Assembly (NCBI GenBank): GCA_016703005.1
Contig: JADJCX010000033.1
Span: 297,767-361,766 of the forward strand
Direction of reading: 5' to 3'
Origin: Flavobacteriales bacterium
GTDB taxonomy: Bacteria; Bacteroidota; Bacteroidia; Flavobacteriales_F; PHOS-HE28
Length of the DNA stretch: 64,000 nucleotides
Shown here: piece after piece, positions 12,218 to 55,138 of the stretch
Layout of the letters: every line of letters starts with the position of its first letter
Position numbering within the stretch: the first letter of the stretch is position 1
The notes under the pieces: model-generated
The model's database searches: none
What the model saw: only the letters and a program-made list of their open reading frames with translations
What the model was told of the DNA's origin: nothing
Position numbers and translations under genes: made by a program

Positions 12218-13603
12218 ATGCGCTCCATTCTGCATATCACCTTCGCTGCAGCCTGCGGAACACTGCTGCTGGTTGCCTGCAACGGCTCGAAGAGCTTGGC
12301 CAAGAAAGCGGCGCAACTCGAAGCCGGCGGCATGTACGCCGAAGCCGCTGACATGTACCTGCAATCGGTGCAACGCAGCAACACGAACGTCGATGCCAAG
12401 ATCGGCTTGAAGAAGAACGGCCAGCAGTTGTTGAACGACAAGTTGAGCACGTTCTGGAAATCAGTGAATGCCGGTGGGCAGAAGGGGGAGGCTGTTGATG
12501 CCTACCTCGCCGCCAAAGCCTATTCGGACAAAGTGGGTCGCCTTGGGGTACAGTTGGAGATCCCCGAGAATTACACCACGGATTTCAATAAGGTGAAAAG
12601 CGAGTACGTCTTGGAACTGTACGAAAAGGGGCAGGTGATGCTCGAGAACAAAGACTACGCGAACGCCGAGAAGGTCTTTGCCCGCATAGGTGAATTGGAG
12701 CCAGGTTACAAAGACACCGGAAGCCTGCAAGCAGTAGCCTATTTGGAGCCGCTATATCGGAGTGGCAAAGATGCTCTTGCGGCTGGGCAATACCGCAAAG
12801 CATACGGCGATCTCGGAAAGGTCACAGCCAAGGATGCCACGTACAAGGATGCGGCTGCATTGCGCAAAGAGTCGGTGGAGAAGGGCCGATACACCATAGC
12901 CGTTTTGCCGTTCACAGGCAATGCGAAGCAGAAGGCATTGAATGACAAGCTGCTCGCCTACGCCACCACGGCTCTTACGGAAGTCAACGATCCCTTCCTG
13001 AAGGTCGTCGACCGCGAGAACCTGCAGCGCATCCTCGACGAGCAGCGCCTCGGTTTGAGCGGAGTGGTGGATGAACAGACCGCGGTGAACGTGGGTAACC
13101 TGATGGGTGCGAAGGCCGTGTTGATGGGTACGCTGATCGACTATCGCGAAGAGACGGGTACGTTGAAGACAAGTACCAAGAGCGGGTTCGAGAGCTACCG
13201 CGTGCGCCAGTTGAACAAGGAAACCAACACTTACGAGACGATCGTGAAGTACCGCCCGGTGAAGTACACCGAGAACTTGCAGGAGAACAAGGTCGTCTTA
13301 TCGTTCAGCTACAAGATAGTCTCGTTGGAAACGGGTGAGGTACTCTTCAGCAAAGTGGTTGACGCCACTAAAGACGATCACATGTACTACGCCAGTTACG
13401 ATGGCGACAAGAACAGCTTATTGCCGGCCGGCCAGAACGGTACCGTCGACCCGAACGACGCAGCGCGGCGCAACCTGGTGCAACTGTTGAACGCGCCACG
13501 CGAGATCAAGCCCACGGCCACGCTCGGCAGCGATGCGTTGCGCGAAGGCGCGAATAACATGGCCGCAACTATCCAAGCGCAAGTGGCCAGTATCCAACAG
13601 TGA
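12218..13603 (+). CDS. CsgG/LpoB-like lipoprotein with an N-terminal TPR-like region
   Basis: Lipobox LLVACNG. The C-terminal region (LPFTGNAKQKALNDKLLAYATTALTEVNDPFLKVVDRENLQRILDEQRLGLSGVVDEQTAVNVGNLMGAKAVLMGTLIDY) resembles the CsgG/LpoB fold. Confidence 0.55.
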   Translation: MRSILHITFAAACGTLLLVACNGSKSLAKKAAQLEAGGMYAEAADMYLQSVQRSNTNVDAKIGLKKNGQQLLNDKLSTFWKSVNAGGQKGEAVDAYLAAKAYSDKVGRLGVQLEIPENYTTDFNKVKSEYVLELYEKGQVMLENKDYANAEKVFARIGELEPGYKDTGSLQAVAYLEPLYRSGKDALAAGQYRKAYGDLGKVTAKDATYKDAAALRKESVEKGRYTIAVLPFTGNAKQKALNDKLLAYATTALTEVNDPFLKVVDRENLQRILDEQRLGLSGVVDEQTAVNVGNLMGAKAVLMGTLIDYREETGTLKTSTKSGFESYRVRQLNKETNTYETIVKYRPVKYTENLQENKVVLSFSYKIVSLETGEVLFSKVVDATKDDHMYYASYDGDKNSLLPAGQNGTVDPNDAARRNLVQLLNAPREIKPTATLGSDALREGANNMAATIQAQVASIQQ

Positions 13604-42736: not shown

Positions 42737-43175
42737 GCTGCAGGCTTCAGGCCCCAAGCCACAGGCTTTTCTGAGTGCTATTCCCCGCTTCGCGCTGCCT
42801 GTGGTTGTCATGCGGCGGTTGTTCCGCTGAATTCAGGTCGGCGACCAGCCTGAGGCTTGGGGCCTGAAGCCTGCGGCCCTATGGTTTCAACACCGACATG
42901 AACCCGGATAGCATTTTCTGCTCCCGCTCCAAGGCTTGGATCAGTAATTCGACCTTGTCCTTTGGGCACCACGGGCGGCGTTGCGCCGAATCTCGCGTTC
43001 GTGCATACCTGTGGTTGTCGATCGATGCGGCGGTTGTTCAACGCGCTGAATTCAAGGAGTCGCAGTGACCAGCCTGAGGCCTGAAGCCTGTGGCCTGAGG
43101 CCATCCAATGCGCAGAGTTCAAGCAGTCGCAGTGACCAGCCTGTGGCCTGAGGCCTGTGGCTTGAAGCCTACTTT
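42737..43175. repeat. Intergenic cluster of direct and inverted GC-rich repeats (REP/MITE-like)
   Basis: About 3 copies of a ~70-90 bp unit (CCTGTGGTTGTC..ATGCGGCGGTTGTTC..GCTGAATTCA.G..GCGACCAGCCTGAGGC(C/T)TG..GCCTG). An inverted copy sits at 42737-42767 versus 42847-42877. Short GCCTG(A/T)GGCC sub-repeats. Confidence 0.6.
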
Positions 43176-45653: not shown

Positions 45654-46850
45654 GATAACTGGAGGTCTCAGGAGCATGTGGGTTAGAGTTGGATGGGCAC
45701 TGGCGGCCGGTAACCGAGTGCTTTGTGAGGTCGAAGATGGTTGTAATCGTACATCCATTCGGTGGTGCGCAAGCGAACCTCATCGAGGGTACGGAAGACG
45801 TATGCGCTGAGCACATCACGGCGCAGGGTTCCGTTGAGCCGTTCGATGTAAGCGTTTTGCGTGGGCTTGCCCGGTTGGATGAAGGTGAGGGTGATCTTTT
45901 GGAGCTTGCACCAGTGATCGAGTTTGGCGCTGATGAACTCCGGTCCATTGTCCACGCGGATCATGGTCGGTAGCGGACGATGTTCCTTGATCTGTTCAAG
46001 GGCACGTATCACGCGCTGAGCAGGCAGTGAGGTGTCCACCTCGATGGCCAGTACCTCGCGGTTGTAGTCGTCCAGGATATTGAGCAGTCGGTACGTGCGA
46101 CCGTCCCAGAGGCTGTCGTGCATGAAGTCGATGCTCCACACCTGATCAGGGGCTTGTGGTTGGAACAACGCCTGCTTCACGCGGGCAGGCAGGCGCTTCT
46201 TGGCCCTGCGCCGGATGTTCAGGCCCATGGCCGTGTACACCCGGTACACGCGCTTGAAGTTCCAGCGTTGACCCGTCAAACGCATGCGGTGATGGCTCTG
46301 CCACACGCCGATGGCCGGATGCCGCTGGGTGAGTTCGCCCAAGGCTTGGATGATCGCCGTGTCATCGGGTGGGTGCTTGAGGTACTGCGCGGTACTGCGA
46401 GCAAGGCCCACACAACGGCAAGCCTGCCGCTGTGTAAGTCCGTGTTCATTGCTCATCGCCTGCACGATTTCGCGCTTCTCGTCAGGCGCCCCACTTCTTT
46501 TCCACCACCTGCTTCAATGCATCGTGCATCATGCTCAGCTCGGCATACATGCGTTTGAGGCGTCCGTTCTCCTCCTGCAGTTCCTTCATCTGCTTGAGTT
46601 GGCTGGCGTCCAGACCACCGTACTTGGCCTTCCACTGGTAGAACGTGGCGTTGCTGATGCCGTGCTCGCGACAGATGTCGGCGACCTTGGCTCCAGCGTC
46701 ATGCTGCTTGAGCATCGAGACGATCTGATGCTCGGTGAACTTGCTTTTCCTCATGGCTACTACTTGTGTTGAAAGTAGCCCCTGACCGGTCAACGGGATT
46801 TTTCCCCAGGCCTGATGGGCCGGGAAAAATCCCGTTGACCTCCACTATCA
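45654..46850 (-). mobile_element. IS3-family insertion sequence (about 1.2 kb). orfA runs 46482-46754 and orfB (DDE integrase core) 45683-46465.
   Basis: orfA has an HTH region (MRKSKFTEHQIVSMLKQHDAGAKVADICREHGISNATFYQWKAKYGG). orfB has the rve/DDE core (...DNGPEFIS...[12 protein letters not shown]...). Imperfect terminal IRs about GATA(A)nTGGAGGTC at both ends. orfB overlaps orfA by about 33 nt but in the +1 rather than the usual -1 frame. Confidence 0.8.
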
Positions 46851-46872: not shown

Positions 46873-47973
46873 TTACACCGATCCTTTGCATATCTGCCCG
46901 CATAGAAAGTCGCTTGGCCTGGAGTCTTTGATTTCGATGCCGAAGGACTGCATCCTTCGATAAATGGTTTCGAAACCCACCATCGAAGGTTTGCCGTATT
47001 CAGCATTCACAGGTATATAGAATGGCTTGGTGAGAACATCGGCGGCTTCGCTGAAACGCTCATGCTTTATAAGGACCGCCAAGGAGAAAAGAAACAACTC
47101 ATGAATGAGAAATCTGTAGTTGTCAAACTCCCAGTCCTGCCAAGAATTCAAATTGGGTGACTTGTCCATATACGGAATGATGTCTTCAAAGAACCGATGA
47201 AGGCGATTAATGATTGCCTCACTCGGGTGATACTGGGCGATAGCCACGAAGAGATGAAGCATCTCGTTTCGTTGCGGAAGAAAGTCTCCAATGCTCGCTA
47301 CTACTGCCTCACCGAATTCTCCAGCCGGGTTCACTAATCTGATTCGCTCAAGGTTCTTGGCAAACGTTGTGCAGTACTCATCAAAGGCACCTTCAGCGTA
47401 GCTTTTATGGTCCCTTAGACCTTCCAGGCACCTTTTGAACAATAGAGAGGTGCCCAATGATGCATGCTCGCCCTCGTTCAAGAACGTGGGCATGGTACCT
47501 ATTTCGGGCTTCACATAAAGGGGTTTGTCAAAAATCCATCGGAGCAGCCGTTCAAGGTTGTCCGAGTACCGGTCCAATTCACTGAGGTCGATGTAGATTC
47601 TGGCCTTGTAGTATGTAGGAAGAAAGGGTTTGTCATTTGCGTCTTTATGGCTCACAACAGCAACGAACTTGTTTTGGTCTTGTCTGTCGTAAACTTCCTT
47701 AGAGATGATTTGCGTTTCAGTTCCAACACCACCCGATCGACCGTCCGCCTTACTCGCGTATTTCTCATCGCAGATAATAACCACCTTCTTAATGTCTGGA
47801 TTGGTGACCATTTGCTCCATGAAGGCCACCGCATCATGCCCTTCCCTCAAATCCCATTTGTCCAGAATCACATCCACTCCAGCCGACCGCAATTGAGTTG
47901 CAAGATCAATGACCCATTGTTCGTGATCCGGGCTGGACCAGCTGTATGAGATGAAGAGTTTTGGGGCGGACAT
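46873..47973 (-). CDS. TIR-domain protein with an uncharacterised ~230-aa C-terminal domain
   Basis: N-terminal TIR-like block KLFISYSWSSPDHEQWVIDLATQLRSAGVDVILDKWDLREGHDAVAFMEQMVTNPDIKKVVIICDEKYASKA. Low-GC (~45%) coding sequence. Start trimmed to MSAPKLF. Confidence 0.6.
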   Translation of the reverse strand: MSAPKLFISYSWSSPDHEQWVIDLATQLRSAGVDVILDKWDLREGHDAVAFMEQMVTNPDIKKVVIICDEKYASKADGRSGGVGTETQIISKEVYDRQDQNKFVAVVSHKDANDKPFLPTYYKARIYIDLSELDRYSDNLERLLRWIFDKPLYVKPEIGTMPTFLNEGEHASLGTSLLFKRCLEGLRDHKSYAEGAFDEYCTTFAKNLERIRLVNPAGEFGEAVVASIGDFLPQRNEMLHLFVAIAQYHPSEAIINRLHRFFEDIIPYMDKSPNLNSWQDWEFDNYRFLIHELFLFSLAVLIKHERFSEAADVLTKPFYIPVNAEYGKPSMVGFETIYRRMQSFGIEIKDSRPSDFLCGQICKGSV

Positions 47974-48142
47974 CCGATTATGAGTATGAGGCAAAGATGG
48001 CTCCCACTTGTCGCGTGATGGGCTGACGCTCGCCTTCGACTCGCTTAATTGCAAGTCAGCATTGCAGCGATTGGCTACATTCGCATCATGCGAGCTATGA
48101 CGCGGCGAATATGGATATGTGGCTAAGCCACTATCTCATTAT

Positions 48143-48216
48143 GGCCCCGTAGCTCAGTCGGTCAGAGCATCTGCCTTATACGCAGCCGGTCGCAGGTTCA
48201 AGTCCTGCCGGGGCTA
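48143..48216 (+). tRNA. tRNA with anticodon UAU (Ile-AUA decoding) on an ileX-like (tRNA-Ile2) backbone
   Basis: Cloverleaf: acceptor GGCCCCG/CGGGGCT, D-arm GCTCAGTCGGTCAGAGC, anticodon stem-loop TCTGC-CTTATAC-GCAGC, T-arm GCAGGTTCAAGTCCTGC, discriminator A, no encoded CCA. Near-identical architecture to E. coli ileX except the anticodon is TAT instead of CAT. Confidence 0.75.
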
Positions 48217-48585: not shown

Positions 48586-48665
48586 ATGCCGGCTTGCGCC
48601 GTTCGGGTTACTGCGCACCGATCGCGTGAATCGCTGACGTCCCGACAAGTCCGGATGTCCTTCGG

Positions 48666-49058
48666 TCAAGGCCTGTGGCCCGCCTTACCGATCCCCGTCG
48701 GCTGTATCGCGCTGGTCTCCACCATCAACACCACGGTCTTCTTGGGTGCGCGCGGGCGGTGCATTACGCCCTTGGTGATGGTGACACCCTGTTGGGGGTT
48801 CAGTTCGATGGTGCGGTCCTCGAGGTCTATGAGCAGTTGGCCTTCAAGCACCAGGAAGAACTCATCGTCGTTGTCGTGCTTGTGCCAGTGGAACTCGCCC
48901 TCCAGCATGCCCAAGCGCACCACGCTGTCGTTCACCTGGCTCAGGGTGCGGTTGGCCCACTTCTCCTTGGTGGCAGCCACAACAGCGGGAATGTCGATCT
49001 TCTCGAGGTGTGCGAACTGCACACCGAGGTCAATGTCGTAGGTGGTCTTGGGTTCCAT
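48666..49058 (-). CDS. Cupin-domain protein
   Basis: 130 aa. The two-His motif region (GEFHWHKHDNDDEFFLVLEGQLLIDL) and a later H are typical of the cupin_2 fold. Confidence 0.65.
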   Translation of the reverse strand: MEPKTTYDIDLGVQFAHLEKIDIPAVVAATKEKWANRTLSQVNDSVVRLGMLEGEFHWHKHDNDDEFFLVLEGQLLIDLEDRTIELNPQQGVTITKGVMHRPRAPKKTVVLMVETSAIQPTGIGKAGHRP

Positions 49059-49195
49059 TGGGCTTGGGCGTCGATCAAATCTAGCTTGGCGCTGCGTCTA
49101 TAAGTAAGGAACGCGCGCGCGGCTTACGATGGAGAGGTACAAGGGTTTCACCTTTCATTCTCCTTGATCTGCTGGCCACGAGTAGGGATATTTCG

Positions 49196-49448
49196 GAAGC
49201 TGATAGAGACATGTTCAGCGCAGACATGGGCATGTTGAAGTTGAACAGAGACCTGTTGGCCACGAACAGGGACATGATCGCCGCTGAAAGAGACATGTCG
49301 GCGGCCGATAGAGACATGTTAGCCGCTGAAAGAGGCATGATAGCGGCTGACAGAGACATGTTAGCCGCTGAAAGAGGCATGTTAGCGGCCGACAGAGACA
49401 TGTTAGCCGCTGACAAGCATGTTGATCGCTGACATGTACATGTCAGCC
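49196..49448. repeat. Tandem array of about 11-12 21-bp repeats (alternating GCCGCTGAAAGAGGCATGTTA and GCGGCCGACAGAGACATGTTA) ending in a perfect 20-bp palindrome GCTGACATGTACATGTCAGC
   Basis: Direct reading of 49196-49448. The 21-bp period equals two helical turns. Every unit contains an ACATGT-like core. Both strands stay open in several frames, as expected for a period that is a multiple of 3. Confidence 0.85.
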
Positions 49449-49584
49449 GTAAAAAGAGGCGTACGGAAGTCAAGCTTTTACTCTGACGGAGGTGTTTCCT
49501 CGCATCCGATCGCAGGTCAGCAGCCTTCGGTGTGTGTCATTCAGTCAAGGGCCTGTGGCCCGCCGCATGCATTAGCTTGAACCC

Positions 49585-50244
49585 GTGTTCCCTGCCACCC
49601 TAAATATCACTGTCTTCTGCGGCGCATTGCTGGTCGCTTGCGTCGTTGCTGCCCAGCCGCCGAAAGAGCCGGGGTCGTTCAGGCCACCCGACCTGGTGGA
49701 GATCGTGAAGCTGGATAAGACCATCAAGCTCGACATCCGCTACGCCACGAAGAACAATTTCCTGGGGCGACCGGTGTACAAACATGCACGGGCCTTTTTG
49801 CAGCGCCCGGCCGCCGAGGCACTGGTGCGCGTGCACCAAGCGCTGAAGGCGCAGGGCTTCGGGCTGCTGGTCTTCGATGGCTACCGGCCGTGGAGCGTTA
49901 CCAAGGTTTTTTGGGACAGCACACCCAACGACAAGAAGAGCTACGTGGCCGACCCCGCAGTAGGCTCGCGGCACAACCGCGGATGCGCGGTGGACCTCAC
50001 CTTGTTCGACCTCAAGACAGGTCGCGCTGTAACGATGCCCAGCGAATACGACGAGATGACGGAACGGTCGCATGCGGACCATTCCGGTGCAACGCCGGAG
50101 GCCACGCGCCTGCGCGATCTGCTCATCGCGGCCATGCAAGCGCAAGGCTTCACGGTCTTCGCCACCGAGTGGTGGCACTTCGACTACAAGGACTGGAAGG
50201 AGTATGCGATCCTGGATGTTCCGTTCAAGGAGATCGGGAAGTAG
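49585..50244 (+). CDS. ddpX: D-alanyl-D-alanine dipeptidase (M15 family, VanX/DdpX-like), secreted
   Basis: Signal peptide and M15D motifs (...SRHNRGCAVDLTLFD...EWWHFDY). Confidence 0.8.
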   Translation: MFPATLNITVFCGALLVACVVAAQPPKEPGSFRPPDLVEIVKLDKTIKLDIRYATKNNFLGRPVYKHARAFLQRPAAEALVRVHQALKAQGFGLLVFDGYRPWSVTKVFWDSTPNDKKSYVADPAVGSRHNRGCAVDLTLFDLKTGRAVTMPSEYDEMTERSHADHSGATPEATRLRDLLIAAMQAQGFTVFATEWWHFDYKDWKEYAILDVPFKEIGK

Positions 50245-50336
50245 ATGTCATTGGAATGTGAGTCGGAACCGCATAGGCCAAGAGCCGGGAGGCAACGCGC
50301 GTTCCGTCCTGCGTCTACTTTCGGCATTCTACCCCC

Positions 50337-51623
50337 ATGCGTGCACATACCCGTTCCTTCCTGCTATCCTGCGCTCTCGCATTCGCCCCGCTGGCACAGG
50401 CGCAGGACTTCTTCTGGGACTTCGAAGGAGCGAACGGCCTCGATGGATGGCACATGTATGATGGCAGTTCGATGCAGACGGGACCAGGTGCGGCCAGTGC
50501 GACCAGCGTGCGTTTGCAGAGCGGACCGCCCCTTAACAGCGGATCGTTCGATTCGGCCATGTTCTTCTACCATGTTGTGCCGTACGACCCTAACGTCTTT
50601 TACAACATTACAGTTGGGTGCATGACACTCGACCCCGATGTGTACCCGATGGTATACCTCGGTTGGCTCGATACGCTGACCCAGCCCGCATTCCTGAACG
50701 CCGCGAACACCAGCATGACCGTTTCGACGGGCCCCTCCAGCTGGGCCATCGCCGAATTGCTGGATGAGTATCCCATCACCGGAACGGGCGCGTACTGCAT
50801 CATCATTTCGGCTTCATCGTTGATCCCGGGCGAAGCCCTGTTCGACAACATTTCCGTTGAGATGATACCGCAGGGCTCGGCCATGCTCCGCGCGCCAAGG
50901 CTGTTCCTGGGCGGCAACTTCGATAGCGGCATCAACCGGATGGGCCACCATCTCAACGACCTGGGATTAGTGCCGGCCACGGAGCCATACACGGCCATGG
51001 GTTACCAGCAGATCGGCGGTGGTGGGGAGATGTGCACACCCTTTGTGATGGAACCGAGCTTCAACTTCAACGCCGTGGATTGGGTGCGCCTCGAATTGCG
51101 TTCGGCCTTGGACCCGACCGTGGTGGTGGCCACGCGGCAGCTCATGCTCACTTCACTCGGTCTTACGTGCGGCCCCAATGGGCAACTGAACCTGCACTTC
51201 GATCTGCCGGCCGGCAACTATTACGTGGCCGTGCGCCACCGGAACCATCTGGGTGCGATGACCGCCACGCCGGTGGCGCTGCCAAGTCCATTTCCATGGT
51301 GGGCGGTGGATTTCCGCTCGCCTTCGCTTGCCACATGGGGCAGCAATGCGCGCAAGGCGGTGGGGGCGAACATGGTGCTATGGGAAGGCGATGTCACAGG
51401 CGACCACTTGCTCAAGTATGTGGGTATGAACAACGACCGCGACCCCATTCTCGTGGCCATTGGTGCGTTGCCCATCGCTACCCTCACCGGTCAGTACCGC
51501 AAAGAGGATGTGACCATCGATGTCGTCGTGAAGTATGTCGGGGTGAACAACGACCGTGACCCCATCCTTGTGAATATCGGCGGTAATACGCCCAATGCCG
51601 TGCGCGTGGAGCAGGTGCCATAG
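50337..51623 (+). CDS. Secreted protein, paralog A of a novel family, with C-terminal dockerin-like Ca-binding repeats
   Basis: Signal peptide. Shares long blocks with 53834-55138 (FEGANGL.GW, EPYTAMGY.Q.GGGGE, VDWVR.ELRS..DPT..VATRQ, NYY.AVRHRNHLG.MTA.PV). Repeats of the form GD.TGD..LKYVG.NNDRDPILV.IG. Confidence 0.6.
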   Translation: MRAHTRSFLLSCALAFAPLAQAQDFFWDFEGANGLDGWHMYDGSSMQTGPGAASATSVRLQSGPPLNSGSFDSAMFFYHVVPYDPNVFYNITVGCMTLDPDVYPMVYLGWLDTLTQPAFLNAANTSMTVSTGPSSWAIAELLDEYPITGTGAYCIIISASSLIPGEALFDNISVEMIPQGSAMLRAPRLFLGGNFDSGINRMGHHLNDLGLVPATEPYTAMGYQQIGGGGEMCTPFVMEPSFNFNAVDWVRLELRSALDPTVVVATRQLMLTSLGLTCGPNGQLNLHFDLPAGNYYVAVRHRNHLGAMTATPVALPSPFPWWAVDFRSPSLATWGSNARKAVGANMVLWEGDVTGDHLLKYVGMNNDRDPILVAIGALPIATLTGQYRKEDVTIDVVVKYVGVNNDRDPILVNIGGNTPNAVRVEQVP

Positions 51624-51717
51624 GGGGTTACGAACTGGCGCGGGCCTTTCTAAGCGTCCATCGCAGAGTCGCTTGTGCGCGAGTCCTACGCATGAGGCCG
51701 CAGGGGCTCGCAGGCCG

Positions 51718-51820
51718 AGGGCTTCACCGTCTTCGCCACCGAGTGGTGGCACTTCGACCACAAGGACGGGAAGGAGTATGCGATCTTCGATGTGGAGTTC
51801 GGCAGGATCAAGGGTCAGTA
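51718..51820 (+). pseudogene. Fragment (~100 bp) of the ddpX 3' end
   Basis: ...GFTVFATEWWHFDHKDGKEYAIFDVEFGRIKGQ* is about 80% identical in DNA to 50140-50244. Confidence 0.7.
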
Positions 51821-51830
51821 GTTCCCCCGC

Positions 51831-53387
51831 CTATTCCTTCACTATGCGCAGGCAGGTCAAACCTTCATTGGAAGTCACCTGCAGGACGTAGGGTCCTGAA
51901 GGGAGAATACTCAGGTCAACAAGGGAGCCGCCAACGCGAAAGTGCCCAGTTTGCACTGTCGCACCCAAGGTGTTGATGACCACATAGACTGCGTTACTGC
52001 CTATGTCGCCGGTGATCCTGAAGACGCCGTTGCTCGGGTTCGGTGTGGCAGTGAGTCCCGGTGCTGGCAGTGATGGGTCCACCGCTGTGCTGAAATCCTC
52101 CTCACCGAGTTCAACAAGCCATACATCGCGCACGCCTATGAAGTCCTGGACGTCGCCATCATTCGATTGTGCATGCCCGGCCATCATGAAGTGGCCGTTG
52201 GGAAGTGCGACGATCGCCGAGCCGCCGTCAAAGTCGGTGCCGCCCATTGTTTTCTGCCACAGGAGATCCCCGAACGGGTCCAGACGTACAACCCAAGCAT
52301 CGGACCAGCCTTGGTTGCTGGTCACGTCGCCATCGGCAGAGCGTGTGTTACCGGTGAAAATGAACCCACCGTCATAGAGCTGGTCCATGTCGATCGGGGT
52401 GTCGAACAGAGAGCCACCGATACAATGCTGCCACTGCAGGTTGCCCAGTGAGTCCAGCTTCACGATCCAAGCGTCCTCATCGCCGTGGAGGCCGCTCACG
52501 TCGCCATCATTGGACGAGGTTCTCGCGGCGATCACATAGCCACCATCCGAGGTGAGCGCCAGATCGAACGGGTTTTCGGACCACGTGCCGCCAAAGGACT
52601 GCTCCCAGAGGATCGCACCGACGCTGTCCACCTTCACCAACCACACATCGTTGGCGCCGAGGTTCTGGGAAACGTCGCCATCGGAGGACAAAGAACTGGC
52701 CGCGAAGACATAGCCGCCGTCCATGGTCCTGGTGATGGACCAACCCACTTCGGCCAAGCTGCCGCCGTAGCACCGCTGCCATTCCAACCCGCCAGTGCTG
52801 TCGAGCTTCACCACCCATGCGTCGTCCGCACCGTGATTGCCGCTCACGTCGCCGTCGTTCGAGGTGGTGCGCGCTATCAGTATGCAGCCACCGTCCGGCG
52901 TGCCTTCAATGCACGCCACGGTCTCGTTGCTCGATCCACCGAGGTCGATGTTCCACTGTACGTTCCCACCGCTATCGAGCTTTACCACCCCGATGTCCGA
53001 GTAAAGCACCGGATACGGCGTGATGTACCCGGTAAGGAAGTAACCACCGTCAGCGGTTGGTGCGAGACCATGGGCATCATCCCAACTAACACCGCCCAGC
53101 GTTTGCTGCCATAGCAGCGTTCCGGTGCTATCGATCTTGAATACCCACATGTCGTGATCGCCGTTCTGCCCCGAAATGTCGCCATCGACCGAGGTTGTGA
53201 ACCCGGAGACAACGAAGCCGTTGTCAGCCGTGCGCAGGAGGTTGCGCCCCATCTCGTCATGCGATCCTCCATAGGTCTCCTGCCATACAATGGGCGGTGC
53301 TATCTGGCCGATGATGGTGCCGCGCAACACAAGAACCGCAACAGGGATGATCGTCCAACGAAAGAAGCGGGCGACTGAGCTTTGCAT
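51831..53387 (-). CDS. Secreted beta-propeller-repeat protein with a T9SS type A C-terminal sorting domain
   Basis: About 8 repeats of about 50 aa (DGGY...G.T.S.DGDVSGNHG.DDAWVVKLDS.G.L.WQ...GG) and a Por-secretion tail (...GPYVLQVTSNEGLTCLRIVKE). Confidence 0.7.
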   Translation of the reverse strand: MQSSVARFFRWTIIPVAVLVLRGTIIGQIAPPIVWQETYGGSHDEMGRNLLRTADNGFVVSGFTTSVDGDISGQNGDHDMWVFKIDSTGTLLWQQTLGGVSWDDAHGLAPTADGGYFLTGYITPYPVLYSDIGVVKLDSGGNVQWNIDLGGSSNETVACIEGTPDGGCILIARTTSNDGDVSGNHGADDAWVVKLDSTGGLEWQRCYGGSLAEVGWSITRTMDGGYVFAASSLSSDGDVSQNLGANDVWLVKVDSVGAILWEQSFGGTWSENPFDLALTSDGGYVIAARTSSNDGDVSGLHGDEDAWIVKLDSLGNLQWQHCIGGSLFDTPIDMDQLYDGGFIFTGNTRSADGDVTSNQGWSDAWVVRLDPFGDLLWQKTMGGTDFDGGSAIVALPNGHFMMAGHAQSNDGDVQDFIGVRDVWLVELGEEDFSTAVDPSLPAPGLTATPNPSNGVFRITGDIGSNAVYVVINTLGATVQTGHFRVGGSLVDLSILPSGPYVLQVTSNEGLTCLRIVKE

Positions 53388-53439
53388 GATGCAATGTAAA
53401 CCTCCTTCCATAGGCCCAAAGCGCTCGAGGCGGAACAGT

Positions 53440-53722
53440 TGTCCGCGCGGCACAACCGCGGCTGCGCGGTGGATCTCACACTCTTCGACCTCAAGACCGG
53501 TCAGGCCGTGACGATGCCAGCGAACACGATGAGATGAACGAACGGTCCTACCCGACCTATTCAGGTGCTGCTCCGGAAGCCACGCGCATGCGCGATCTGC
53601 TGATCGCGGCGATGCAGGCGGAGGGCTTCACGGTCTTCGCCACCGAGTGGTGGCACTTCGACTATAAGGACTGGAAGGAGTATGCGATCTTGGATCTACC
53701 GTTCAAGGAGATCGGGAAGTAG
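53440..53722 (+). pseudogene. Fragment (~280 bp) of the ddpX 3' half, frameshifted
   Basis: Aligns to ddpX from ...HNRGCAVDLTLFDLKTG to the stop. A 1-nt deletion lies near 53518. The last 62 codons remain open as ORF 53534-53722. Confidence 0.75.
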
Positions 53723-53833
53723 TGGGCCATAGCTGGTGAGGTGGCGGCCTTGGCACGGTAGTCCTGATCCATCGGACCACAAGGCAACACTTCGCCGCAT
53801 ACCCCGTCTATCCGGTACATCATTTCCCTGCGC

Positions 53834-55138
53834 ATGCTATCCCAGTTGGTTCGTTGTGCCTCGGTAGGCATTTTTGTCATCGTCGGGAACACGGCTGCCT
53901 CGCAGACCTACAGCTTCAATTTCGAGGGTGCGAACGGCCTTTCGGGTTGGGTGCAGAACGACGGCCAACCCATTGGCACGGGGGCAGGTGCAAGCGGTAG
54001 CACGGCGTTGTCCATTTCCGTGGACCAGGTCAACTGGGACCGTCGTGTTTACCATCCCATTCCGTTCGACCCGACCAAGGTCTATCGGTACTCGGCCTGG
54101 ACGAAAGTGGGGCAACTCTCGACTACCACATCGGTAAGGCTCGCGTGGGTCGACTTCAGCACCGGACAGCGCATCTACACCGATACCTACTATCTGAACG
54201 GAAATTATGGCGCATGGCGGCCAGGGGGTATCCCGCCTCATCTCATCCCGACGGCCGACTTCTCGTCGAACCCGAACGCACAGTTCTGCATCGTGCTCGA
54301 AGCATTCGATGGTCTTACCGGCATCGCATGGTTCGATGATGTGGTGGTGACGATGAGCGACGTTTCCTCCACTGCGTTCATCAGTGCGCTTGTGATGTTG
54401 GGCGGTACGTACACCAACGGCTACATGCCTGCCAACCTGCGCTTGCAGAACCTGCTGCCTGTGCTGGAACCGTACACCGCGTTGGGCCATGTGCAAGTGG
54501 GTGGTGGCGGTGGCGAAACGGCGCCGGAAGCATGGTGGAACTTCAACAACCTGGACGGGCCGGTGGATTGGGTGCGGGTTGAATTGCGCTCTCCGATCGA
54601 CCCGACCATCATCGTGGCCACGCGGCAAGGGCTGGTGAGCAGCATCGGCTCGATCACCGAGGTGGACGGCGGCAGTGCCCTTGGTTTCAGTGTTGCACCG
54701 GGCAATTATTACCTGGCGGTGCGGCACCGCAACCACCTCGGGTGCATGACCGCCTCGCCGGTTTTCGTGCAAGGTGCCATCACGGTTCCGTGGTCGGCTT
54801 ATGGTTTCGTGGACTTCACTGCGGCCGCTACCCCTGTTTGGGGGACCGATGCGCGGAAGCACGGTGACAACACTTACAACTACAAGGTGCTATGGCCCGG
54901 TGACACCAATGGCGATGGTGTGGTGAAGTACACCGGTGCCAACAATGACCGCGATCCCATTCTGCAAGCGATCGGCGGCGTCCTGCCGACCAATACGTTG
55001 CCCAGCGTTTACAACATACATGACGTGGGCATGGACGGCACGGTGAAATACACCGGGTCCTTCAACGACCGCGATCCGATCCTGCAGACCATCGGAGGTG
55101 TTATTCCCACGTTGACGCGCGCGGCGCAGTTGCCTTGA
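53834..55138 (+). CDS. Secreted protein, paralog C of the novel family, with dockerin-like repeats
   Basis: Signal peptide. Conserved blocks shared with 50337-51623. Repeats DTNGDGVVKYTGANNDRDPILQAIGG and GMDGTVKYTGSFNDRDPILQTIGG. Confidence 0.6.
   Translation: MLSQLVRCASVGIFVIVGNTAASQTYSFNFEGANGLSGWVQNDGQPIGTGAGASGSTALSISVDQVNWDRRVYHPIPFDPTKVYRYSAWTKVGQLSTTTSVRLAWVDFSTGQRIYTDTYYLNGNYGAWRPGGIPPHLIPTADFSSNPNAQFCIVLEAFDGLTGIAWFDDVVVTMSDVSSTAFISALVMLGGTYTNGYMPANLRLQNLLPVLEPYTALGHVQVGGGGGETAPEAWWNFNNLDGPVDWVRVELRSPIDPTIIVATRQGLVSSIGSITEVDGGSALGFSVAPGNYYLAVRHRNHLGCMTASPVFVQGAITVPWSAYGFVDFTAAATPVWGTDARKHGDNTYNYKVLWPGDTNGDGVVKYTGANNDRDPILQAIGGVLPTNTLPSVYNIHDVGMDGTVKYTGSFNDRDPILQTIGGVIPTLTRAAQLP

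Follow-up and report, generated by a model that had tools for sequence, protein, structure and literature searches.

Is the array of 21-bp direct repeats at 49196-49448 of the DNA studied here a set of protein-binding sites, part of a gene, an element that acts in cis through its shape, or a repeat with no effect on its surroundings? The stretch analysed, referred to as the window, comprises 64,000 nt of contig JADJCX010000033.1 from the assembly GCA_016703005.1 of an uncultured Flavobacteriales bacterium. The array sits where a cupin gene (− strand) and a dipeptidase gene (+ strand) are transcribed away from each other, in the 526 nt that separate them. The reading put forward here, tentatively, is that it is a non-coding, lineage-specific minisatellite in a hypervariable cassette, with a putative role in cis, exerted via its length or structure, in tuning the dipeptidase gene. 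A neutral variable-number tandem repeat (VNTR) is nearly as likely.

The twelve 21-bp units listed by the first-pass annotation are real, in the sense that about 12 periods lie within 49196-49448, made up of ten clear units together with degenerate and edge units. Repeat finding returned 10 copies at a spacing of exactly 21 nt. With 49205 as the first position of the register, ten units (49205-49414; consensus AGAGACATGTTAGCCGCTGAC) agree with the consensus at 10-21 of the 21 positions. Before them, at the array's 5′ margin, come two degenerate units (49163-49204), of which the one at 49163 agrees with the consensus at 9/21 positions and the one at 49184 at 13/21; by eye, the former resembles the unit at 49247 at approximately 14/21 positions. 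A penultimate unit of 19 nt (49415-49433) and a perfectly palindromic last unit (49428-49447) complete the array, and no strand is assigned to any of these parts. Over 49199-49424, Tandem Repeats Finder reported a period of 21 (8.8 copies, 74 % matches) and a period of 42 (5.1 copies, 79 % matches). The longer period outscores the shorter one, as expected from the 42-bp higher-order repeat of alternating subtypes that had been proposed, and the alternation is seen in the last six of the ten units. The proposed ACATGT-type core is exact in 7 units and takes the form GCATGT, ACATGA or ACCTGT in the remainder. Each 21-bp unit is an imperfect 7-N6-7 palindrome and so has dyad symmetry. The best-conserved block within the units is AGAGrCATG, which spans the proposed spacer but reaches no further than the first bases of the right arm. 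The 5′ units are older and more degenerate, and the 3′ units are homogeneous.

The last unit, in register with the others, is GCTGACATGTACATGTCAGC (GCTGACA-TGTACA-TGTCAGC), and the earlier description of it as a perfect 20-bp palindrome was confirmed. It is the sole perfect palindrome of ≥18 bp in the window, where 0.02 are expected for a length of 20 bp. It differs from the consensus by four substitutions, each of which raises the symmetry (GAGACA to TGTACA, and TGTTAGC to TGTCAGC). Substitutions of this pattern are what hairpin-templated correction, or selection for a perfect dyad, leaves behind. A CsgG-like lipoprotein gene was considered as the origin of the palindrome and rejected, as the 13-mer that it shares (CGCTGACATGTAC, at 12346-12358) is expected approximately 0.5 times by chance and is probably a coincidence. 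The same gene contains a 21-nt repeat (1.9 copies, 12319-12358) that encodes GGMYAEAADMY. The idea that the CATG in the units is a restriction or methylation site also gained no support; the genome-wide frequency of CATG is only slightly below expectation (ratio 0.85).

Arrays of this kind, designated type A, were compared in three sequences, namely the window, a metagenome contig from ENA (L001) and the metagenome-assembled genome (MAG) 'Bacteroidetes sp. RBC076' (L003). The terminal palindrome is identical in L001 and L003. L001 is shorter by exactly two units (42 nt) and nearly identical in the non-repeat DNA closest to the array, so that array length differs between strains by one 42-bp higher-order repeat. 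In the three-way alignment, the 19-nt penultimate unit of the window reflects a 2-nt deletion relative to both L001 and L003, and L003 has a further 1-nt indel. The non-repeat intergenic DNA around the array differs by 4-6 % between strains, whereas units 1-4 differ from those of L003 at 1/84 positions. The units are head-to-tail, belong to the 10-100-bp class and occupy one locus with a copy number that varies between strains, as in VNTRs and minisatellites. The dynamics of the array are those of a minisatellite, namely slippage (slipped-strand mispairing) together with unequal exchange or recombination.

The evidence that carries most weight came from a second allele. Genomes with this allele, designated type B, were found by searching with the dipeptidase protein and then fetching the contigs of the closest relatives. 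In one of these (L086; NCBI accession GCA_963851765.1, contig CAWKQT010000011.1), the order cupin, gap, dipeptidase, 428-aa gene is the same as in the window, and the nucleotide identities to the window are 97 % for the cupin gene, 91 % for the vanX-like dipeptidase gene and 99 % for the 428-aa gene. The 504-nt gap of L086, in which no gene was called, contains 13 copies of a 22-bp unit, GTCACAGTCGCACGACTGCATG, with 92 % matches, and this unit is made up of a 16-bp palindrome, GCAGTCG(T/C)ACGACTGC, plus 6 nt. The same type-B array was found in a wastewater metagenome contig (L089) that breaks inside the array, probably because the assembly broke at the repeat. The type-B array spans positions 2573-2858 in L086 and 1-80 in L089.

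Going right from the cupin start, homology between the window and L086 continues over a conserved segment, stops at 49099 and resumes with TAGCTTGAACCC (49573-49584, + strand), a conserved sequence found directly 5′ of the dipeptidase start codon. What lies between in the window is a variable cassette of 473 nt (49100-49572, no strand assigned) that consists of a left flank, the array and a 125-nt right flank. This type-A core and the 451-nt type-B core cannot be aligned; local-alignment z-scores were approximately 0, both for the flanks and for the whole cores, compared with 16.8 for the conserved promoter piece. No residual homology was detected between the two types, as the unit consensuses were no closer to one another than shuffled sequences (p = 0.67) and the flanks were no closer either. 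In the type-B genomes, replacement or strong divergence also affects the dipeptidase gene itself, over its first ~55 nt. Beyond the first ~110 nt of this gene the window, L003 and L086 are roughly equidistant, and whole-cassette replacement in close relatives is therefore a simpler explanation than gradual divergence. The two types are alike in design, with ~13 palindromic units of 21-22 bp and non-repeat flanks that measure ~40-65 nt (left) and ~125-130 nt (right). Heptads cannot be encoded with a period of 22 bp, and the recurring feature of this locus is therefore the geometry of the DNA and not a peptide. The presence of the same design in two unrelated cassettes leads us to favour a length- and structure-dependent role in cis.

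The array has a very narrow range. The suggestion that the unit be located genome-wide, to see whether it is unique or dispersed, was followed up, and the unit is confined to a single locus in the window and to one contig of the RBC076 genome. When up to three mismatches were allowed, there were 6 matches in the window, all within the array (0.01 expected). A degenerate two-unit pattern was searched in 185,579 species, each represented by one genome, and the sole multiple match was to one contig of the RBC076 MAG; the three other matches in representative genomes were single chance matches. The array unit is thus not scattered in many copies in the manner of repetitive extragenic palindromic (REP) sequences or miniature inverted-repeat transposable elements. 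No array was found upstream of the dipeptidase relatives at 80-85 % identity (L087, L088, L090, L091 and L092), where the upstream genes are different and the gaps of 13-112 nt are too short, nor beside a cupin relative at 92 % identity (L093 and L094), which has a different neighbour. Likewise, no such array was found at 80 loci from soil and other metagenomes that encode dipeptidase homologues of ≤72 % identity. One of the soil-metagenome loci (L007, dipeptidase homologue with 67 % identity) has a repeat at 199-262 that ends 16 nt upstream of the start of the tblastn match. This consists of three copies of an unrelated 21-nt sequence and was rejected as a relative, being too short and too distant. 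A blastn search of the type-A array against 72,556 plasmids and 50,697 phages gave no match, and a pattern scan of IMG/VR with both unit types gave nothing. In the MAG contigs, which are 50-219 kb long, the locus is chromosomal.

Two open reading frames (ORFs) overlap the array. One encodes 73 aa in MLAAERD heptads on the + strand (49211-49432), and the other, antisense to it, encodes 130 aa in SLSAANM heptads on the − strand (49081-49473). The first-pass annotation gave these heptads as (RDMLAAE)n and (SLSAANM)n, and both translations are correct. It also argued from the presence of heptads on both strands that the periodicity is a property of the DNA. This argument is weak, because the third codon positions of the two frames coincide, so that variation there cannot separate the frames and heptads on both strands prove little. 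The conclusion itself holds for other reasons, namely the 22-bp array in the sister strain, the non-native codon usage, the frameshifting indels and the presence of degenerate units 5′ of the first in-frame ATG, which means that the array is not coextensive with the + strand ORF.

The codon usage of both ORFs is not that of the native genes. The codon adaptation index was 0.46 for the + strand ORF and 0.40-0.45 for the − strand ORF, compared with 0.68 ± 0.05 (minimum 0.60) in 23 long genes, and the values for both ORFs equal those of out-of-frame or non-coding readings. AGA and TTA each account for approximately 2 % of their codon family in the 23 long genes, yet dominate in the + strand ORF. 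The 2-nt deletion in the window truncates this ORF, which is 73 aa there as opposed to 109 and 121 aa in L001 and L003, and the same indel moves the N-terminus of the − strand ORF. In the tail that follows the array, a hand count in the three-way alignment found eight substitutions, distributed 4/1/3 over the three codon positions. A search of 5.8 billion proteins with the + strand product returned a sole homologue, from the same locus in L001. The 130 matches found by phmmer appear to be generic xERDxLAx or minisatellite-like heptads that share no flanking sequence. The − strand product matched no family, and the + strand product has no Pfam match above the curated cutoff (only a weak match to FAZ1_C below it) and none in NCBIfam or the PDB. 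Neither reading frame behaves like a gene, and both ORFs were judged to be by-products of the repeat.

We therefore consider it very improbable that the + strand of the array encodes a small coiled-coil protein, or a regulatory upstream ORF rich in rare codons (AGA, TTA and ATA) that would couple translation to the expression of the dipeptidase. Several observations would fit such a product. All three type-A sequences keep the frame open, and in L001 and L003 it stops 4-8 nt short of the dipeptidase start. The heptad has hydrophobic a and d and charged e, f and g positions and so is amphipathic, and many real proteins with xERDxLAx heptads were matched by phmmer. By eye, about half of the variable positions in the units are third codon positions, and a gene caller had called the ORF in one metagenome. 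However, variation at third positions is uninformative where the wobble position is common to the antisense frame, the phmmer matches look generic, with no orthologue found beyond the locus, and the codon adaptation is at the non-coding level. In addition, the C-terminus is altered by the 2-nt deletion in the window and by the 1-nt indel in L003, units continue 5′ of the ATG, and the 22-bp period of type B provides neither a heptad nor a fixed frame. A general caution follows, namely that a perfect heptad ORF, even one that has been called as a gene in a metagenome, can be the by-product of a 21-bp DNA repeat.

The array had also been likened to the iterons of plasmids or phages and to a cooperative operator, and distinguished from a CRISPR array. 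The last point is correct, as the units abut and there are no spacers. The others belong to a broader explanation, in which the array would be bound by a sequence-specific protein, as a cooperative operator, a decoy, a partition centromere or a set of iterons, with a dimer on each dyad and all dimers on one face of the helix. The spacing of two helical turns, the 7-N6-7 dyads, the last unit that is a perfect palindrome of the same half-site and the position between divergent genes are all consistent with this, and the architecture is comparable to that of R6K (7 × 22 bp) and of F sopC (12 × 43 bp, with a 16-bp palindrome). Several direct repeats of ~17-22 bp in helical phase, as seen in iteron sets, are indeed present (at least 10 units at 21-bp spacing), and the dyad units are like those of sopC/parC-type centromeres. 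However, the context does not agree. A Pfam scan of the main ORFs between 41.6 and 61.2 kb identified cupin, M15 peptidase, TIR/SEFIR, IS3 transposase, E1 dehydrogenase, type IX secretion system (T9SS) cargo and hydrolase genes. The proposed check for a nearby Rep or initiator, or for a regulator matching the half-site, found none among these ORFs, which also include no Par-family or transcription-factor gene. In L086, too, no neighbouring gene clearly encodes a regulator, the sole candidate being a 461-aa protein with a below-cutoff match to Schlafen/AlbA_2. There is no AT-rich region (the lowest G+C content in 100-nt windows is 47 %), the DnaA-box matches (6, versus 6.9 expected) are not clustered and the nearest is ~1 kb away, and no plasmid, phage or viral match was found. 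A replication iteron set is not supported, since every aspect of the context that was tested speaks against it.

For the operator, what had been proposed is possible in principle and is weakened by the lack of a nearby regulator and by the distribution of the motif. In a check that covered the window and one representative genome, the patterns GCTRACA-N6-TGTYAGC and TGTYAGC-N-GCTRACA and the sequence AGAGACATGT had no match in the 64 kb other than in the array, and the two-unit pattern was found on one RBC076 contig alone. The conserved AGAGrCATG block, which takes in the spacer and little of the right arm, also counts against an operator. A sister strain with near-identical flanking genes has a completely different unit. 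With so unrelated a sequence, recognition of a specific site is unlikely if the recognizing protein is the same in both strains, and no matching change in a protein was seen nearby. A sequence-specific operator array is unlikely, and a sequence-specific protein-binding array of any kind is improbable here.

Single strands of both array types are predicted to fold strongly, with z-scores of −7.4 and −4.8 for type A and −7.3 and −12.9 for type B. The 286-bp type-B array can fold back, via its 16-bp palindromes, as one long interrupted hairpin with a predicted energy of −192 kcal/mol on the − strand. Neither array type reached the gathering score of any family in Rfam 15, and only the tRNA at 48143-48216 passed.

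If the array acts in cis, the dipeptidase gene is the likely target. On the other side of the gap, the conserved segment 49059-49099 (− strand) contains a Bacteroidetes-type −7 box, TAGATTTG (49083-49076), located 17 nt before the cupin ATG and kept as TAGCTTTG in L086. This segment is predicted to be the likely cupin promoter, and no other perfect −7 box of the Bacteroidetes type occurs in the gap; this one is on the cupin strand. No convincing candidate for a + strand promoter was found in the gap downstream of the array, which is compatible with the array being inside a long leader. The array could determine how far apart, or in what topology, the conserved cupin promoter segment and the dipeptidase gene lie. 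Alternatively, the dipeptidase mRNA could have the array as a 5′ leader rich in hairpins. In either version, changes in repeat number would tune expression.

The strongest competitor of this cis-tuning reading is a VNTR with no effect on its neighbours, grown from a palindromic seed by replication slippage and homogenized by unequal exchange. Types A and B would then be either independent expansions or fast-turnover descendants brought in by recombination. This is quite possible, and much of what was found fits it. The phylogenetic range is narrow, copy number varies, the alleles share no sequence conservation, the units show no covariation, no regulator is encoded by the scanned ORFs, and the gradient from degenerate 5′ units to homogeneous 3′ units is typical of minisatellites. 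A further group of findings weighs against a functional role in cis. The array is restricted to a very narrow clade and a single locus. The strand that folds better is not the same in type A and type B. Covariation gave no support for conserved hairpins, as 80.7 % of the cells were paired among 17 distinct type-A units and 81.1 % in shuffles. Finally, only two alleles are available, too few to prove that geometry is selected, and palindromic seeds may simply expand more easily.

What the neutral explanation accounts for less well is that two unrelated arrays agree in period, copy number, dyads and position within flanks that are 91-99 % identical, an unlikely coincidence. It also sits uneasily with the low divergence of units 1-4 from L003 relative to the adjacent non-repeat intergenic DNA. 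Bacterial genomes are biased towards deletion, and ~270 bp of perfect tandem palindromes, if useless, would be expected to be lost quickly. A further reading is that the geometry itself is selected. Here the cis element would be ~13 dyad units spaced at two helical turns, its sequence would be free to change, and the unrelated cassettes would be alleles that homologous recombination swaps. Between the divergent promoters, the element could serve as a supercoil or cruciform buffer; it could instead be a hairpin-array mRNA leader, or a platform for a protein that is structure-specific rather than sequence-specific. We consider this reading doubtful. If more allele types with the same geometry exist, they would argue for a bacterial cis element selected for shape and not for sequence, and would offer a natural swap experiment. 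On balance, the minisatellite with a putative length- or structure-dependent role in tuning the dipeptidase gene remains our tentative preference.

The genes on either side are a Cupin_2 gene on the left (48666-49058, − strand; Pfam PF07883, E = 9e-11), transcribed away from the array, and a Peptidase_M15 gene on the right (49585-50244, + strand; Pfam PF01427, E = 5e-38), which encodes a VanX-type D-Ala-D-Ala dipeptidase with an N-terminus that, judged by eye, is hydrophobic and signal-peptide-like. The direct repeats said to bracket the segment containing the array are present, as a 16-nt repeat (48669-48684 and 49549-49564) that encloses the cupin gene and the array and extends to ~27 nt if a gap is allowed (48658-48684 and 49525-49564). 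They contain a hairpin, GGGCC-TGT-GGCCC, and L087 has two hairpin-like matches, of which one is intergenic. This suggests that they are copies of a small dispersed REP-like hairpin and not the ends of an element. Only in this strain does the left copy supply the final codons of the cupin ORF. An imperfect palindrome with a (CG)5 run, GTAAGGAACGCGCGCGCGGCTTAC, which is prone to form Z-DNA, is found at the left edge of the type-A cassette (49104-49127).

Further to the left, a tRNA-Ile gene with anticodon TAT (+ strand, 48143 to ~48217) adjoins a low-G+C TIR/SEFIR-domain gene (46873-48054, − strand) and an IS3-family transposase gene (45683-46465, − strand). A tRNA-Ile(TAT) is uncommon in bacteria, most of which decode AUA via a lysidine-modified CAT tRNA. 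The G+C content of the patch with the transposase and TIR/SEFIR genes is 47.6 %, compared with ~59 % elsewhere, and it looks like an acquired defence-type islet beside a tRNA gene. In L086, the equivalent flank contains instead the 461-aa protein with the weak Schlafen/AlbA_2 match and a 186-aa protein of no known type. On the right, the dipeptidase gene and the neighbouring gene for a 428-aa secreted protein are partly duplicated within 49585-55138. Fragments of the dipeptidase C-terminus are found at 51710-51800 and 53446-53722 and a paralogue of the 428-aa gene at 53834-55138, with a gene for a T9SS β-propeller protein (51831-53453, − strand) in between. The layout of the duplication is similar in the complete genome CP064979.1 (L090). 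The window has a second intergenic tandem repeat, two copies of a 67-bp unit at 43039-43169, upstream of the E1 dehydrogenase gene, and this carries internal 14-nt sub-repeats (AGCCTGAGGCCTGA).

Among known systems, the iterons of plasmids and phages (R6K γ ori with 7 × 22 bp, RK2, F, P1 and λ ori) are, like the units described here, direct repeats of ~17-22 bp in helical phase, and those of λ also have dyad symmetry and are located in an open reading frame. The present array differs in being chromosomal, between metabolic and cell-wall genes, in lacking an initiator gene, an AT-rich unwinding element and DnaA boxes, and in having twice the usual number of copies. The sopC centromere of F (12 × 43 bp) also consists of ~12 tandem units with an inverted repeat in each. 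However, the unit of the array is half as long, there are no parA/parB-type genes nearby, and the array is not on a plasmid. At the protein level, the + strand MLAAERD translation resembles the LAAERDG-type repeats of large bacterial proteins, but these xERDxLAx coiled-coil segments are embedded in long multi-domain proteins, whereas here there is a 73-aa ORF that draws on the rarest codons, shifts frame between strains and has a sister allele with a 22-bp period. The minisatellites known as mycobacterial interspersed repetitive units (MIRU) are likewise intergenic tandem repeats with a copy number that varies between strains, and they contain small ORFs abutting the flanking genes. The MIRU are, however, a dispersed family with 40-100-bp units within operons, while the array is at a single locus between divergent genes.

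A documented precedent for the cis-tuning reading is the VNTR between clbR and clbB in the pks island of Escherichia coli, which occupies a divergent gap and 5′ untranslated region and in which 5 versus 20 repeats result in an approximately 2-fold change in expression (PMC7364221). There, too, a tandem repeat with a copy number that varies between isolates lies between divergent genes, and the effect of its size needs no dedicated binding protein (PMC7364221). The clbR unit differs in being 8 bp long and non-palindromic, whereas the units described here are 21-22 bp long and dyad-symmetric, are present in ~13 copies and are replaced by an unrelated array in the sister strain. As a plain intergenic VNTR, the array is thus of an ordinary, known kind, and what sets it apart is the existence of a non-homologous allele with the same geometry.

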